The notes below the pieces were generated by a model. The model was not told the origin of the DNA. It did no database searches and was given only the letters and a program-made list of their open reading frames with translations. Shown here piece after piece: positions 55,331 to 64,000 of a DNA stretch of 64,000 nt. The DNA is from Aquificaceae bacterium (lineage in GTDB: Bacteria > Aquificota > Aquificia > Aquificales > Aquificaceae), in NCBI GenBank assembly GCA_037925075.1, contig JAXSNR010000002.1:512001-576000 (forward strand), in the 5' to 3' direction. The position numbers were made by a program, and so were the translations under genes. Position 1 is the first letter of the stretch. Each line of letters begins with the position of its first letter.

Positions 55331-56075
55331 GACCCACCTCCTCCAGCCACTTTTCAAAGCTTTTGCCTTCCATTATAGCTGAGAGGAGGGACTCTTCCAG
55401 TGGGTTTAGGTCCTTTGGAATGGTGTCTGGTCTAAGCCTTAGGGTCCTTTCTATGGAATGCCACAGTTCCCAAAGTCTAATAAGCTGGTGGTTGCCAGAG
55501 AGTAGCACCTCTGGCACCTTCATACCTTTGAAATCCGCAGGCCTTGTATAAACGGGTGCACCGAGCCACCTTCTAAAGGAATCCCTTCTCAGGCTTTCAG
55601 GCTCGCTCAAGACCCCGGGCAGAAGCCTTGCAATACCTTCCAAAAGCACAAGGGCAAAGAGCTCACCACCAGCCAGCACAAAGTCCCCCAGAGAAATCTC
55701 CTCGTCCGCCAAGGTGCTAATTCTTTCGTCTAATCCTTCGTACCTTCCACATATTACCGCCAAACTATCAAAGTTAGATAACCTATCGAGGTCCTTTTGA
55801 GTAAGCCTTTTGCCCCACGGCTGAGGAATTACAGTATAAGGTTTGCCGAAACTTTTCACTATCTTTTCGTAAGCTTCAAAAACGGGCTCTGGCTTTATAA
55901 CCATTCCGGGATGCCCACCGTAGGCTGTGTCATCCACCTGCCCTTTGTGAGCAAAATCTCTAAGATTTACCGTATGAAGTTCAAGTATGCCCTTCTTTAT
56001 GGCTTGTTTTACCGTACCGTATTCCGCATAGCACTGGATAACCTGAGGGAAAATTGTAAGGACAAAAAACCTCAT
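55221..56075 (-). CDS. trmD: tRNA (guanine37-N1)-methyltransferase
   Basis: VDDTAYGGHPGM, CGRYEGLDER, SLGDFVLAGGE, YTRP, LLSGNH. Confidence 0.96.
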   Translation of the reverse strand: MRFFVLTIFPQVIQCYAEYGTVKQAIKKGILELHTVNLRDFAHKGQVDDTAYGGHPGMVIKPEPVFEAYEKIVKSFGKPYTVIPQPWGKRLTQKDLDRLSNFDSLAVICGRYEGLDERISTLADEEISLGDFVLAGGELFALVLLEGIARLLPGVLSEPESLRRDSFRRWLGAPVYTRPADFKGMKVPEVLLSGNHQLIRLWELWHSIERTLRLRPDTIPKDLNPLEESLLSAIMEGKSFEKWLEEVGHERAFKSLQGMQLFGCGDDVPEGEPSSEGASEERTS

Positions 56076-56935
56076 CTAAGAAAGTTCTCCACCATGCTTC
56101 TTGCCCTTTCTTGACTGAAGCGGTAGTATATGTCTATGGTGGTCTTCACGTTTGAATGTCCTGCAAACTCCTTGACCACCTCCGCAGGAAATCCGGAATT
56201 TACAAGGTTTGTTATGTAGGTGTGTCTAAAGCTATGAACGGAAAAGGGAATGCCTAACCTCTGGGAAAGCCTGTTGGTATAAACTTGCAGAGAGCCAGCC
56301 TTTACAAATATGTATCTTTCGTAATCCTGAAGCCACTCATGTAGCTTTTCGTTTATACTCAGGGTTTCTTCCCTTGAAAGACCTATTATAGGGACAACTC
56401 TTTCTTTACCTCTCTTTGTCACTTCCGCAGGAAGTCTTAACCAGTATATGCGGTTTTTGTCCCTCTGGAAAAACTCTCTTTTTAACTGAGAGTATTCGGA
56501 AAGCCTTATACCACTGTAAAGAAGCAAACTGTACACGCGCTCGTATTTTGTATTTTTCACCGCCTCAAAAATCCTCTTTAGCTCCTCACTACTCAAAGCC
56601 TTTGGACTTTTTTGTGGCCTGGATCCAGAGAGGTCATCTCTTATTTCTTCTATTACAGCTTCCAGCTCTGAGTACTTTTCCCTGTTTAGCCACCCCCTTC
56701 TAAAGGCGAACTTATAAAAGTGCTTTATGGCGGAAAGATGAGTAAGAAGCGAAGATACGGATAGCTCTGATGAGTCAACGTATGAAAACATCTCCTTTGG
56801 TTCAATCTCAAGAAGGCTAACATCCCTACCTATGTACCTTTGAAAGGAAGATAGGCACATGCTGTATGTGGTTATGGTTCTTTGGCTTTTTGTCCTGCTC
56901 AGGCTCTTTATCCAAAGCTCCAAAAGCCTGTCCAT
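56072..56935 (-). CDS. Tyrosine recombinase, Xer-like
   Basis: SAM-like N-domain; catalytic R (SGIRLSE), K (TKRGKER), HSFRH, GH, Y; 287 aa; ATGA overlap with trmD. Confidence 0.9.
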   Translation of the reverse strand: MDRLLELWIKSLSRTKSQRTITTYSMCLSSFQRYIGRDVSLLEIEPKEMFSYVDSSELSVSSLLTHLSAIKHFYKFAFRRGWLNREKYSELEAVIEEIRDDLSGSRPQKSPKALSSEELKRIFEAVKNTKYERVYSLLLYSGIRLSEYSQLKREFFQRDKNRIYWLRLPAEVTKRGKERVVPIIGLSREETLSINEKLHEWLQDYERYIFVKAGSLQVYTNRLSQRLGIPFSVHSFRHTYITNLVNSGFPAEVVKEFAGHSNVKTTIDIYYRFSQERARSMVENFLR

Positions 56936-56950
56936 GATTTTATTTTATTC

Positions 56951-57577
56951 CTACTTTTTTCTCTTCTCCAGTTCTATACGGAGGTTGGAAATCTCCATCT
57001 CCCTACTAAGTATTTCCCTATCCTTGTCTAGCAGAGCCCTCTGTAGCTCCAGTTCCTTCTGATTCAGGAGATGCTCCTTCTCTTTTAACTCTTCCTGAAG
57101 GTTTTTTATGACCTCATCCTTTTCTGATATCAGTCCAATCAACCTTTGGTTTTCCAGTTCTTTTTCCTTACAGAGCTCTTTTTGTTTCTCCAGGTCCCTT
57201 ATTAAAAACTCCATCTCCTTTTCTCTTATAGCCAGAAGGGTATACAGGCTTGAAAGCTCATGAAGAAGTTGTTCTTTTTGTTGTTCCTTTTGCATTAAAG
57301 CAGACATGTAGGTGGCTATTAGACTACCTTCCAGGGTTGATTTGAGGTTCTCAAGGTTTGATTGAAGGTTTTTGTTTTTCTCCTCTTGAGCCTCCTTTAG
57401 CCCCCTTATGTATTCCAACTCCTCCTGGGTTAAATAAACATACCAAATACCGTCCTCTTCTTTACCACCCCTTATTAAGCCTGCTCTTATGCGGTTTTTC
57501 ACCGTGTTTAAAGAAAGACCCGTAAATGTGGCATATTCAGAGGCTTTTACCTTGACAGCATCTTTGACATCATTCAT
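56951..57577 (-). CDS. MerR/Xis-like HTH plus long coiled-coil protein
   Basis: KASEYATFTGLSLNTVKNRIRAGLIRGGKEEDGIWYV, then heptad-rich E/K/L/Q tail; SD AGGAGG before ATG 57577. Confidence 0.8.
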   Translation of the reverse strand: MNDVKDAVKVKASEYATFTGLSLNTVKNRIRAGLIRGGKEEDGIWYVYLTQEELEYIRGLKEAQEEKNKNLQSNLENLKSTLEGSLIATYMSALMQKEQQKEQLLHELSSLYTLLAIREKEMEFLIRDLEKQKELCKEKELENQRLIGLISEKDEVIKNLQEELKEKEHLLNQKELELQRALLDKDREILSREMEISNLRIELEKRKK

Positions 57578-57606
57578 GATAGACCTCCTTTCAGTAATAT
57601 GACAGT

Positions 57607-57635
57607 ATTTTATATCAATTGATGTCAAGTGTCAA
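57607..57635 (-). promoter_or_regulatory. Consensus sigma70 promoter for the HTH/coiled-coil gene, overlapped by an 8-bp inverted repeat
   Basis: TTGACA-N17-TAAAAT; TTGATGTC-N11-GACATCAA (57619-57645) straddles the -35 box. Confidence 0.75.
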
Positions 57636-57667
57636 TAGACATCAAAAAGGAGAGTGGCAGGATATTG

Positions 57668-57695
57668 TGTTAATATAATTGCTATTATGTTAACA
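57668..57695. other. dif-like Xer recombination site (11-6-11)
   Basis: TGTTAATATAA-TTGCTA-TTATGTTAACA; right arm has the canonical XerD-arm core TTATGTTAA; arms 10/11 inverted. Confidence 0.8.
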
Positions 57696-57753: not shown

Positions 57754-58023
57754 TCAAGCCATAGAGATTAAACCCTTATAATGGTCCACAATCATCCTTC
57801 TTATCTTTTCAAGAAGTTCCTTATCTTCTACTTCTACTGTAGCTCTCTTAGTGTCTGGGTTATACTCCGGCATGGATATAAAATAGCCTCCGTTCTTTGC
57901 TTCATACAACCTTATGCCTCTTATAAGTATCTTTCCATCAATTCTGACATCCGCGTAAGCAAGAAGCCTTGGTCTTCTCGTGGATACTTCAAAGGGATAG
58001 AAGTTAATGAGCTCCACTTTCAT
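57754..58023 (-). CDS. SpoVG-like nucleic-acid-binding protein
   Basis: LLAYADV.IDG.I.IRGIRL...KNG.FISMP pattern. Confidence 0.75.
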   Translation of the reverse strand: MKVELINFYPFEVSTRRPRLLAYADVRIDGKILIRGIRLYEAKNGGYFISMPEYNPDTKRATVEVEDKELLEKIRRMIVDHYKGLISMA

Positions 58024-58685: not shown

Positions 58686-58721
58686 TACTAAAAGGTGAAA
58701 ACCTTTAAAGGAGGTAAAACC

Positions 58722-59063
58722 ATGGCAACACTGAGCAAACTAAAAGAGCTCATGTCACTGCCGGGTGCAGTGGCTGCAGGAGAATTTTCCGATGATGGTA
58801 GGCTTCTTGCCTACTACGGCAACATTGATGAGAAGTCTGCAGAAATCGCAGCTATGATGTGTGCTGCCAACAAGCTCATGGGTAACATGCAGGCAAAGGG
58901 CTGGAGTGCCTACACAGGTCAGGGTGGCTTTTATCCAGTTTGTGGCTTTGCGGTCGCGGGAGGTAAATACGCCGCTTGCATAATGGGTAATGTGGGCGTG
59001 TTTGTGGAGCTTGATAAGGCGGACTTTGACAAAACCTTTGAAACCCTTTCAAAATACATCTAA
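58722..59063 (+). CDS. DUF2173 family protein
   Basis: LMSLPGAVAAGEFSDDG, AMMCAAN, GVFVE; SD GGAGG. Confidence 0.8.
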   Translation: MATLSKLKELMSLPGAVAAGEFSDDGRLLAYYGNIDEKSAEIAAMMCAANKLMGNMQAKGWSAYTGQGGFYPVCGFAVAGGKYAACIMGNVGVFVELDKADFDKTFETLSKYI

Positions 59064-59078
59064 AAGGAGGTGAAAACC

Positions 59079-59414
59079 ATGGCAAACCTTGACAGGCTTA
59101 TGAAGATCAAAGGAGTTTGGGCTGCGGGTGAGTTTACCGATGATGGAAACCTTGTCGCTTACAAGGGGAACATATCCGAAGAGCATGCTGCCATGGCTGC
59201 GGAGATGTGTGCAGCAAACAGTATGATGGCTAAGATGCAGTGCGACGGATACACTGCCTTTTCCGGGCAAGAATGGACACCGATGCACGGATGGGCTCTT
59301 ACAGGTCCCAAGTATTCCGTGTGTGTAATGGGCAACGTGGGCGTCTTTGTCAATAACGACGAGGTATCTTTCAACGAAGTGTTCAAAGCACTTAGAGAAG
59401 AAGCAGGTAAGTAA
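59079..59414 (+). CDS. DUF2173 family protein (tandem paralog)
   Basis: LMKIKGVWAAGEFTDDG, AEMCAAN, CVMGNVGVFV; SD AGGAGG. Confidence 0.8.
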   Translation: MANLDRLMKIKGVWAAGEFTDDGNLVAYKGNISEEHAAMAAEMCAANSMMAKMQCDGYTAFSGQEWTPMHGWALTGPKYSVCVMGNVGVFVNNDEVSFNEVFKALREEAGK

Positions 59415-61724: not shown

Positions 61725-62642
61725 TATATCCTCATGTATCTGTCTTTTTAGGTCTTCTACATTGGAAAACTTCCTCTCTTCCCTTAGAAACTTTAAAAAC
61801 TCCACCTTTATCTCCCTTCCTCTTAGATTTCCTTCAAAGTCAAGTATATGAACCTCCAAAACCCTTTTACTCCCTCCAAAGGTTGGCCTTTTGCCGTAGT
61901 TGGCAACGCCTATAAGACTGTTTTCAACCTTTACCGCATAAACCCCCTCCTTTAGACAAAGGTTTTCCGTGTTTTGTAGGTTGGCGGTAGGAAAACCTAA
62001 AGCTGAGCCCCTTCCGTCTCCGCTTATCACTTTTCTTTTTACTGTGTAGTTTCTTCCAAGGTACAAGGAAGCCTCCTCCAGCCTTCCCATATGAAGAAGT
62101 CTTCTGATGAGCGTACTACTTACCACATGGCCGTTTATCCTAAAGGGCTCTATCTCCTCCACCTCAAAGCCCAACTCTTTCCCCATCTCCTTTGCAAGCT
62201 CTATCTCACCCTCGCGCTTGTATCCAAACCTCCAGTCATAGCCAACCACAAGATGCCTGCACTTTAGGGTGTTCCAAAGAACCTCCTTTATAAACTTCTC
62301 CGCGGAAAGCAGGGAAAACCTTCTATCAAATCTTATAAAGACCACAAGGTCCACACCCCTATCAAGGATAAGCTCCGCCCTTTCTTTTATGTCTGTGAGC
62401 TCACATGGTGTATGTGCAGGGCTCAAAACCTTTAAGGGATGAGGATAAAAGGAAAGCACCACACTTTTTAACCCCTTTTCCTTTGCTCTTAATATGAGCC
62501 TTTCTAAAAGGTGCATGTGTCCCTTATGGACACCGTCAAAGTTGCCAACGGTTACAGCGGAAGGCTCTGTAATCTCCAGAACACACTCCAACCCCTTCAA
62601 GCACGCACTTTCATCTGTTTTCAAACACACTACCTTTTCCAT
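61686..62642 (-). CDS. ribF: Riboflavin kinase/FAD synthetase
   Basis: GNFDGVHKGH, SSTLIR, GFPTAN, EVHILDF. Confidence 0.96.
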   Translation of the reverse strand: MEKVVCLKTDESACLKGLECVLEITEPSAVTVGNFDGVHKGHMHLLERLILRAKEKGLKSVVLSFYPHPLKVLSPAHTPCELTDIKERAELILDRGVDLVVFIRFDRRFSLLSAEKFIKEVLWNTLKCRHLVVGYDWRFGYKREGEIELAKEMGKELGFEVEEIEPFRINGHVVSSTLIRRLLHMGRLEEASLYLGRNYTVKRKVISGDGRGSALGFPTANLQNTENLCLKEGVYAVKVENSLIGVANYGKRPTFGGSKRVLEVHILDFEGNLRGREIKVEFLKFLREERKFSNVEDLKRQIHEDISAVRSLFQVSHV

Positions 62643-63226
62643 AGTTTTCTTATCCTTTCCCAGAAGCTAAGCTCCTGTGAGACCTCCATGGTTTCCTTTA
62701 CCACAAACCTGTCCAGGTAATCGTCCAAAAGCAAAAACCTATCGCATACTTTTCTTAGTTGATAAGAACTTGTCCTCTTAAAGGTGGCGTTTTCAACCCT
62801 TTTGCCCAGCCTTTGCACCTCTTCTACCGTGTAGGAAAAATCGCTATCCCCACTTACAAGCACCGCGGTGTCGTATGCGTTCATGTACGCCAAGCTGAGC
62901 ATGTCCGTTGCCAGCATTATATCCACTTCCTTTTCTATATATTCACCCGAAGGAAGCCTTCTGAGCTTTGCCAACTTTACCTTTATCCCCTGAAAGGAGA
63001 GCTCCTCAAGAAACCTTCTCTGTCTGATGTAGCTTTCCCACTCTGAAGTGTTCTTTTTAAGGTCCTTTTCCTGAGGCACCGCTCCGTAAAAATAGACCCT
63101 TACCAACCTTCTGTCTTCCCTCAGAAATTCCACGAGTCTTTGGTAGTCTATCTTTATGTTCATATACCTTATGGCATGGAAAAGGTTAGAACCGTCTATG
63201 AATACTGAAACCCTTTCATAGTTCAT
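62630..63226 (-). CDS. NYN (LabA/DUF88) domain protein
   Basis: FIDGSNL, EKEVDIMLATD, LVSGDSDF, GKRV. Confidence 0.93.
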   Translation of the reverse strand: MNYERVSVFIDGSNLFHAIRYMNIKIDYQRLVEFLREDRRLVRVYFYGAVPQEKDLKKNTSEWESYIRQRRFLEELSFQGIKVKLAKLRRLPSGEYIEKEVDIMLATDMLSLAYMNAYDTAVLVSGDSDFSYTVEEVQRLGKRVENATFKRTSSYQLRKVCDRFLLLDDYLDRFVVKETMEVSQELSFWERIRKLWKR

Positions 63227-64000
63227 AGAGCGAATCGCATAAAGCAGGCAAGCCCGTCTATCTTTTTCTGAAGGCCATCTGAGAATATCACCTTTATCCT
63301 TGCTCTCTCCTCAAGGGCAAACTCAATTATTTCATCCACCACATCAGGAACTTGATAAACCTTATCCTCCAAAGGGCACTCTGGAGTAAGAAGAGGTAGA
63401 TGGGATTTTTCACACACATAACCTGGCTTTTGGAAGCTCTCAGGAAGGATAAGAAGCCTAACATTACCATTGTATAGCTGTTGCAAAACCTTTGACGTGC
63501 CATTGACAGCAAGACCCTTACCCTCTAACTCCTGCAACTCTTCCAGAAGTTTCTTTTCTTCTTCTCTACTTTTTTCCATGAGTAGCTGATAAACCTTTTC
63601 CCTAAGCTCTGCTTCCTCTACATAGGACGGGTTTGCGTTTATATAACCCACGAGCCTTTCCAGAAGGTAGGTATGAAGATGGTTTTCTATATCTTTTATG
63701 TCTTCCCTGTCAGAGCCTATGATAAGCTTGTCAAACTTGCTTTCCTTCCATGCTTCCATGAGGGCGTCCCCTGCGATCTTGAAAAGCCTGTGCTTTTCTT
63801 CACTTATCCTCATATTGAACCTATATTCACCAAAGGAGTGCTGAACCATGTTAGGACTGCCTATCCTCGCAGGCATAGAAAACCTCATAATCCCTTCCGC
63901 TCCTTTTAACATACGACCCCCAGAGTGGAACCTGTGAGCTCTTGTGGCAAGAGGCTCTACAAAGTCCAAAACTTCTTGCAAGCCTTCAAGGTCCATAAGG
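63223..64000 (-). CDS. Bacterial aeRF1-like (baeRF) protein, 5' end outside window
   Basis: Domain 2/3 pattern: LIIG, L.ERLVG, AVNG...GNVRLLIL, Cys knuckle, DVVDEIIE.A, RF at C-terminus. Confidence 0.75.
   Translation of the reverse strand, partial: LMDLEGLQEVLDFVEPLATRAHRFHSGGRMLKGAEGIMRFSMPARIGSPNMVQHSFGEYRFNMRISEEKHRLFKIAGDALMEAWKESKFDKLIIGSDREDIKDIENHLHTYLLERLVGYINANPSYVEEAELREKVYQLLMEKSREEEKKLLEELQELEGKGLAVNGTSKVLQQLYNGNVRLLILPESFQKPGYVCEKSHLPLLTPECPLEDKVYQVPDVVDEIIEFALEERARIKVIFSDGLQKKIDGLACFMRFAL

Follow-up and report, generated by a model that had tools for sequence, protein, structure and literature searches.

In the literature consulted, bacterial chromosomal Xer systems depend on FtsK or have FtsK available, and dif recombination that needs no partner protein is reported for archaea. 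According to the available portions of the papers, XerA of Pyrococcus abyssi is active alone (PMC2958812), and the Sulfolobus dif, which is not located in the fork-fusion zones, is recombined by Xer alone (PMC3020120). At cer, ArgR and PepA are described as accessory factors (PMC5357621, available part). No dif site or Xer recombinase of Aquificae was found in the literature searched: these bacteria are unmentioned in the text and two supplements of Kono et al. (PMC3025954) and in the main texts of PMC5357621 and PMC8138268, and subscription papers, DoriC-type databases or supplements such as Dataset EV1 of PMC8138268 may hold one. The 28-mer described here is very probably the place where the sole recombinase of an Aquificaceae bacterium unlinks joined daughter chromosomes, apparently without FtsK. 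It lies in a window of 64,000 nucleotides, the whole stretch of DNA that was analysed, among the following features:

57668..57695, no strand assigned: predicted dif, a 28-bp recombination site (arm 57668-57678, spacer 57679-57684, arm 57685-57695)
57607..57635, minus strand: sigma-70-like promoter for ORF2-xer, with 11/12 consensus matches (consensus match only)
57546..57665, no strand assigned: cluster of TGAYA/TRTCA half-sites over the promoter and the ORF2 start, seven in 120 bp
56951..57577, minus strand: ORF2, 208 aa, a winged helix at the N terminus that resembles MerR/Xis/RacA (weak structural matches), plus a long coiled coil
56072..56935, minus strand: xer, a 287-aa Xer-type tyrosine recombinase, the sole tyrosine recombinase of the genome
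55221..56075, minus strand: trmD, the downstream neighbour, which overlaps the recombinase stop codon

The 28-mer reads TGTTAATATAA-TTGCTA-TTATGTTAACA and occupies the non-coding gap from the spoVG-like gene to ORF2, 733 bp from the recombinase gene. The SpoVG-family gene (57754-58023, minus strand) stands downstream of a peptide deformylase gene in a non-sporulating thermophile. At 58695-59414 (plus strand), tandem DUF2173 roadblock-like genes are followed by a 128-aa gene and then by a sigma-54-type regulator-like gene, and at 62630-63996 (minus strand) an NYN-domain gene adjoins a baeRF12 release-factor-like gene.

The layout of the 28-mer is that of XerCD/dif: 28 bp, two 11-bp arms around 6 bp, a single copy and a non-coding position. 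A first-pass annotation had read it as a nearly symmetric dif with two XerD-type arms, and its 11-6-11 geometry with 10/11 inverted arms was confirmed by re-reading window positions 57668-57695. The 10/11 symmetry alone is not significant, being ordinary for this genome: the 1.6-Mb sequence contains 21 inverted repeats of 11-6-11 geometry at 10/11 or better, and 20, 19 and 18 such repeats with spacers of 5, 7 and 8, respectively. A scan for rival palindromes therefore leaves the 28-mer one of many equally symmetric repeats, but its sequence is unique, with no second place in the genome within three mismatches of the arms (the next best has four) and no match at that threshold in ten shuffled genomes. 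The annotation had also seen the symmetry continue outwards as TATTG...CAATA with a 2-nt bulge. These letters are present in the window, but across 62 orthologous sites no flank column exceeds 50% conservation; conservation ends with the 28-mer, so the outer symmetry is not kept and is probably due to chance. Over the 28-mer itself, there is no terminator call and no Rfam match.

Scanning related genomes, as the annotation had proposed, showed that the site is conserved. An arm-based pattern matched 65 of 81 Aquificaceae genomes, including 49 of 57 good genomes and 11 of 12 genera (a few of the 65 being weak off-site hits among the matches listed), versus a single match in 81 for the reversed pattern used as control; 16 of the 81, eight of the 57 good ones included, gave no pattern match. 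Nearly all matching genomes contain one strong site per chromosome, among the matches listed. When loci were fetched by the recombinase gene alone, and thus independently of the pattern, 19 of 30 contained the site. A site within three mismatches is present in 62 of 73 loci examined, 32 of them without mismatch, and one of the 62 (L247) is probably not the true site. The inner ATAA and TTAT are invariant in 62/62 sites, although this arm conservation is partly circular because 43 of the 62 were chosen by pattern. The spacer takes 19 different forms, and the spacer, sometimes the whole 28-mer, is inverted relative to ORF2 between species. An asymmetric spacer had been expected to set directionality; it is indeed asymmetric and variable, but the absence of palindromic spacers is weak evidence and not significant (P 0.12 for the 62 sites, 0.10 with element sites added).

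Besides this recombinase, no tyrosine recombinase is present in the genome, whose completeness is rated at 99.95% and which thus holds no XerC-XerD paralogue pair. The enzyme has matches in 76 of 80 relatives, 74 of them strong, and judged by its named homologues the window belongs to Aquificaceae. Core-binding and catalytic domains and the R-K-H-x-x-R-H/W-Y catalytic residues identify it as a tyrosine recombinase, with R144, K174, H234, R237, H260 and Y271 invariant in ten aligned orthologues. Its bit scores stay below the cut-off of every Xer model: 99/220 for XerA (NF040815), 86/330 for XerD, 85/335 for XerC and 35/267 for XerS. Archaeal XerA is the best match in the PDB by sequence (4A8E, E 3.5e-12) and also the best match by fold (5HXY). 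The RQ motif of XerD aligns to L216-Q217, where the Q is kept and the R is replaced by L. The designation "XerD-type" suits an arm that agrees with the E. coli XerD arm quoted in the annotation at 9/11 positions, but it describes the DNA only, because the enzyme falls far below the Xer cut-offs and keeps only the Q of RQ. Only three representatives among 1.84 billion score below 1e-30 against the recombinase; the next relative is a cluster with Thermococci-labelled members (E 1e-29), which itself reaches 198 bits on the XerA model (cut-off 220). In a small tree, the recombinase sits on a long branch of its own, away from the Xers of the two sister families that were sampled, and its placement relative to the ece1 integrase has a support of 0.38 (tree with at most four sequences per group).

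The distance between site and xer is 676-742 bp in 24 of 62 loci, in one of which the xer copy is broken, and 178-674 kb in six closed genomes. In L041 (G007:C6), an intact xer lies 10 kb from the site, while a second, broken and closer-related xer follows directly behind a g1-like ORF2 (78% identity), which suggests that the cassette was transferred between genera.

FtsK-gamma was found in 0 of 151 genomes of the phylum (controls 8/14) and the FtsK ATPase in 4 of 99 genomes, all partial; this genome has none at 1e-8, its best match being a 44-position P-loop piece. Because no FtsK was found, the Aquificaceae enzyme is probably active alone, in analogy to P. abyssi XerA. This genome shows no GC skew or third-position skew and no polarised 6- or 8-mers beyond noise. 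The position of oriC was not located, as no DnaA-box cluster was found, including none at the site, and no Aquifex oriC position was found in the available parts of the literature. In nine closed or near-closed genomes, for three of which the genome length was rounded, the angle between site and dnaA is 1, 6, 23, 42, 55, 64, 83, 109 and 157 degrees, and in two genomes the site lies 7 and 28 kb from dnaA. This range argues against a classical terminus dif, unless oriC is located away from dnaA, and the scattered angles would fit the arrangement in Sulfolobus.

ORF2 stops 15 bp before the recombinase start, and the two genes are presumably co-transcribed; the 28-mer lies about 33 bp upstream of the -35 element of the predicted ORF2-xer promoter and does not overlap with it. 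The ORF2 model consists of a small winged helix and a 125-residue helix (pLDDT 89). Weak matches to RacA, Xis and BldC have E values of 0.03-0.13 (RacA 0.03), the language-model likeness is to DUF3972, the fold search returned only generic coiled coils with Z below 8, and a complex prediction with the recombinase, at a score of 0.00, spoke neither for nor against an interaction. The TGAYA/TRTCA cluster is the densest in the genome and is a candidate ORF2 binding array.

A DNA-binding coiled-coil gene of two unrelated kinds adjoins 56 of 62 sites, 54 of which have the site upstream at 77-147 bp. The ORF2 start is 77-103 bp from the site in 39/62 loci, and a ribbon-helix-helix coiled-coil gene, for which plasmid-borne relatives exist, lies within 150 bp in 17/62 (15 pointing away, two towards); neither gene is present at 6/62 sites, one of which is truncated where its contig stops. 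Genera g5 (0/4), g7 (0/10) and g10 (0/2), where the site persists, yielded no ORF2 (0/16 in total), and in L049 ORF2 has moved 0.9 kb away with the site kept. Between site and gene start, the repeats are of a different kind for each gene type. Since the site persists without ORF2 and the repeats differ with the gene type, neither protein is likely to be the reader of the 28-mer. Both genes may be relics of integrated plasmids, and it is conceivable, if rather doubtful, that their products serve as accessory factors in the manner of ArgR and PepA at cer.

An exact-match scan of metagenomes for the site returned at least 124 stretches. In four contigs, three of the genus g11 type (L336, L366 and L320) and one of the g8 type (L388), host homology stops and foreign DNA starts 0-3 bases from the 28-mer; L420 and L357 are their intact counterparts, and the foreign side matches other site-bearing elements in three of the four. 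These assemblies thus display the trait of IMEXs, an element joined to host DNA at dif. L336 contains, in this order, host DNA, a whole site, a 1.04-kb insert, a 10-bp remnant of the right arm and host DNA again, a nesting that one mis-join would not make. All junctions come from metagenome assemblies, and contigs of four runs from one study contain no joint at the site. Among the matches listed, element family A comprises 22 sites with exact arms and 11 spacers, and family B 26 such sites with 12 spacers. A 4.6-kb DUF927 element occurs three times on one contig, and the sites of all three copies point the same way. In three family-A elements, the site is accompanied by an element-borne gene for a divergent tyrosine recombinase with catalytic residues present, so that not every junction needs the host enzyme. 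Divergent tyrosine recombinases of 324-347 aa with an insertion before the final catalytic residues are found on site-bearing elements in L372, L379 and L362. The 5-kb family-B loci and viral record G163, both of them fragments, yielded no integrase, and a search with one family-B gene found no viral relatives.

The 4,518-bp contig G055:C20 (L040) opens exactly with the first base of a 3-mismatch site and has this site again 4,367 bp further along, as might be expected of a circle. This 4.4-kb plasmid-like sequence contains a large Rep-like gene, a DUF4258 gene pair and a ribbon-helix-helix coiled-coil gene. Virus BK013346.1 (L252, 2698-2725) shows a 22/22 arm match between two sets of tandem repeats, which from its sequence may indicate a virus using the host Xer; in the available part of their paper, Palmer et al. 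found no integrase in these Aquificae viruses and propose the intergenic region that holds the site as an origin (PMC7689252). The related viruses BK013347.1 and BK013345.1 have no site, a Pyrovirus survey found it in 0/9 terminase-anchored and 1/40 portal-anchored loci (many of them short), and plasmid ece1 has no match within five mismatches. A tailed-phage fragment of 23% GC (L080, 8092; viral record G164) contains an exact family-type site, spacer included. The exact site in G163 was not counted as viral because its low-complexity segment also adjoins IS110 transposases in hosts. This segment carries the site in L077 (1755-2575), L091, L093, L094 and L342, joins different host loci right at a TATAA end, and in G163 links host ilvE to a 38-kb Pyrovirus-like genome. 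A second site in G048 was likewise rejected as evidence for Xer activity: the def-DUF2173 region is present there as a 2.4-kb inverted duplicate (85%; L042 4173; G048:C1 79972, 150915), and the end of the duplicate is the end of a multi-copy IS that cuts the left arm of the site copy.

In a sister family (27 genomes), a looser pattern is no more frequent than the control and the Xer differs from the Aquificaceae recombinase; site and enzyme therefore share one family range. Within 4 kb of the Xer genes of sister families, no convincing site was found in 20 loci. The Xer of these families (L255-L274) is conserved, different and likewise without FtsK. Outside Aquificae, a tyrosine recombinase lies within 2.5 kb of the same motif in 20 of 66 GTDB loci and is absent at that distance from the other 46; in 12 of the 20, the site is up to about 210 bp upstream. 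Control loci gave no recombinase neighbour (0 in 23 loci of 256 kb) but come from recombinase-poor Aquificaceae genomes, and nine of the 20 recombinase-adjacent loci are related Peribacteria-group genomes. In Peribacteria/Peregrinibacteria (L504, L508, L509, L513, L518, L456, L465, L475 and L495), the motif precedes a tyrosine recombinase gene by about 50-70 bp and is a candidate single-Xer/dif module of these Patescibacteria. Tyrosine recombinases also adjoin the motif in Paenibacillus (L453, L468, L484, L494 and L501) and Bdellovibrionales (L444 and L500), and two motif copies lie within 1.2 kb in Paenibacillus L494 and L501.

A unique and conserved site, a single intact enzyme and the host/element junctions lead to the conclusion that the 28-mer is almost certainly a crossover site, and most likely a homotetramer dif that would work like archaeal XerA/dif. 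The one-recombinase homotetramer suggested by the first-pass annotation agrees with the sole recombinase, the family-wide symmetric arms, the asymmetric and variable spacer and the junctions at the 28-mer. That the host Xer acts on the site is, on sequence grounds, very likely, and the whole model, in which crossover, host Xer and FtsK-free dimer resolution hold together, appears likely. Judging from the tyrosine recombinase family, one Xer monomer would bind each near-identical 11-bp arm, two sites would synapse in a homotetramer, and cleavage, probably at the edges of the 6-bp spacer, would proceed via a Holliday junction, with the asymmetry of the spacer setting the alignment of the sites. 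Directly repeated sister sites on a chromosome dimer could thus be converted into two monomers in the absence of FtsK and of any set position opposite dnaA, as in the archaeal XerA/dif systems. Mobile elements that carry copies of the arms would use the site for inserting or for resolving their own multimers. In this scheme we infer the cutting of the 28-mer by the host enzyme, the cleavage positions and the role in dimer resolution.

An unlikely alternative is that the 28-mer, while a recombination site, is mainly an attachment hot spot for element integrases or the autoregulatory site of a domesticated plasmid resolvase, with no dimer resolution. The missing terminus position, the element-borne recombinases beside sites in L372, L379 and L362, the ribbon-helix-helix gene with plasmid relatives in some genera and the grouping of the enzyme away from sister-family Xers would all suit this explanation. 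However, nearly every matching genome (among the matches listed) has a single strong site on its chromosome, and this genome contains no other recombinase and no element homologue. Moreover, the site is kept hundreds of kb from xer and across 11/12 genera, so that a host function is needed, and autoregulation by a resolvase is at odds with a site that does not overlap the predicted promoter. It is also possible, although on balance we doubt it, that Aquificaceae replaced an ancestral Xer with an FtsK-free cassette in which the neighbouring coiled-coil protein does the job of FtsK. The winged-helix protein of most genera, or the ribbon-helix-helix protein, would then bind the repeats beside the site and hold or tether sister sites, thereby biasing the reaction towards resolution at any chromosomal location, and plasmids and viruses of the family would share the site as an exchange system.

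Explanations that involve no recombination fare worse than the crossover site. A transcription-factor operator, read for example by ORF2 or by the adjoining ribbon-helix-helix protein, is highly improbable: the proximity of such a gene to 56/62 sites, 54 of them upstream at 77-147 bp, and the repeated occurrence of the pattern on some Paenibacillus contigs are what an operator could show, but the same site stands beside either of two unrelated DNA-binding folds, which are accompanied by different repeats, stays in place where ORF2 is missing (g5, g7 and g10) or 0.9 kb off (L049), and an operator does not account for the junctions. We give just as little credence to an origin of replication or a centromere-like partition element that some other host protein would bind. 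The site is far from dnaA in seven of nine genomes and has no DnaA-box cluster, and the 11-6-11 geometry with a free spacer, the recombinase neighbours in other phyla and the junctions are traits of recombinases, against which stand the two sites at 7 and 28 kb from dnaA, the viral copy in an intergenic region proposed as origin in the available part of Palmer et al. and the weakly RacA-like head of ORF2 (E 0.03). A chance palindrome or an RNA hairpin/terminator is next to inconceivable, even with 21 equally symmetric repeats in the genome, as the inner arm positions are invariant in sequence instead of covarying, terminator calls and Rfam matches are lacking, and the reversed-pattern control matched only 1/81.

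A family of bacteria that combines a clear site and a single enzyme with no detectable FtsK allows tests of the timing and direction of dimer resolution without a septal motor, and of whether a terminus position is obligatory for dif. The 28-mer also marks where mobile elements integrate in a dominant group of hot-spring bacteria. The one-enzyme, 28-bp pair is probably thermostable and comes with natural spacer variants, and could possibly provide a Cre/lox-like tool and serve Aquificae genetics. If the coiled-coil protein does replace FtsK, an accessory array in cis would control bacterial dimer resolution in place of a septal translocase.

As far as the available parts of the cited papers describe them, the known systems share different subsets of these features. 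E. coli XerCD/dif, with FtsK and KOPS, has the same 28-bp 11-6-11 site, and Q217 aligns with the Q of its RQ motif; here, in contrast, there are one enzyme and two like arms, FtsK was not found, the site has no fixed position opposite dnaA, and the R of RQ is L. XerS/difSL and XerH/difH likewise employ a single recombinase, often encoded near the site, but these enzymes are 354-362 aa long, XerH depends on FtsK and difSL measures 31 bp (PMC5357621), whereas the Aquificaceae enzyme has 287 aa, reaches 35/267 bits on the XerS model, has no FtsK that could be found and is unlinked from the site in several genera. Symmetric arms, a single enzyme possibly far from the site, and mobile elements that integrate at the site are also features of XerL/dif of Legionellales and its IMEX LME-1, although the Legionella arms are not homologous to any known Xer motif, their site is located close to the terminus and these bacteria have an FtsK homologue (PMC9765430). 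The pdif/dif modules of Acinetobacter (PMC12907356) and IMEXs resemble the Aquificaceae elements in their mobile DNA, several site copies, varied spacers and site-bounded cargo, but use XerC/XerD arm pairs, while the arms are alike here and some elements encode a recombinase. Archaeal XerA/dif of P. abyssi (PMC2958812) and Sulfolobus solfataricus (PMC3020120) shares one recombinase, a near-symmetric 11-6-11 site, the lack of FtsK and a site that is not tied to the xer gene in all species. It differs in that Aquificaceae are bacterial hosts whose enzyme (99 bits vs. 220) forms an isolated clade and is not a XerA orthologue, that no polarised motifs were found here, and that a DNA-binding coiled-coil gene adjoins the Aquificaceae site. 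The Aquificaceae system is not XerCD, XerS, XerH or XerL, and, although it fails XerA orthology, it probably works most like archaeal XerA/dif.
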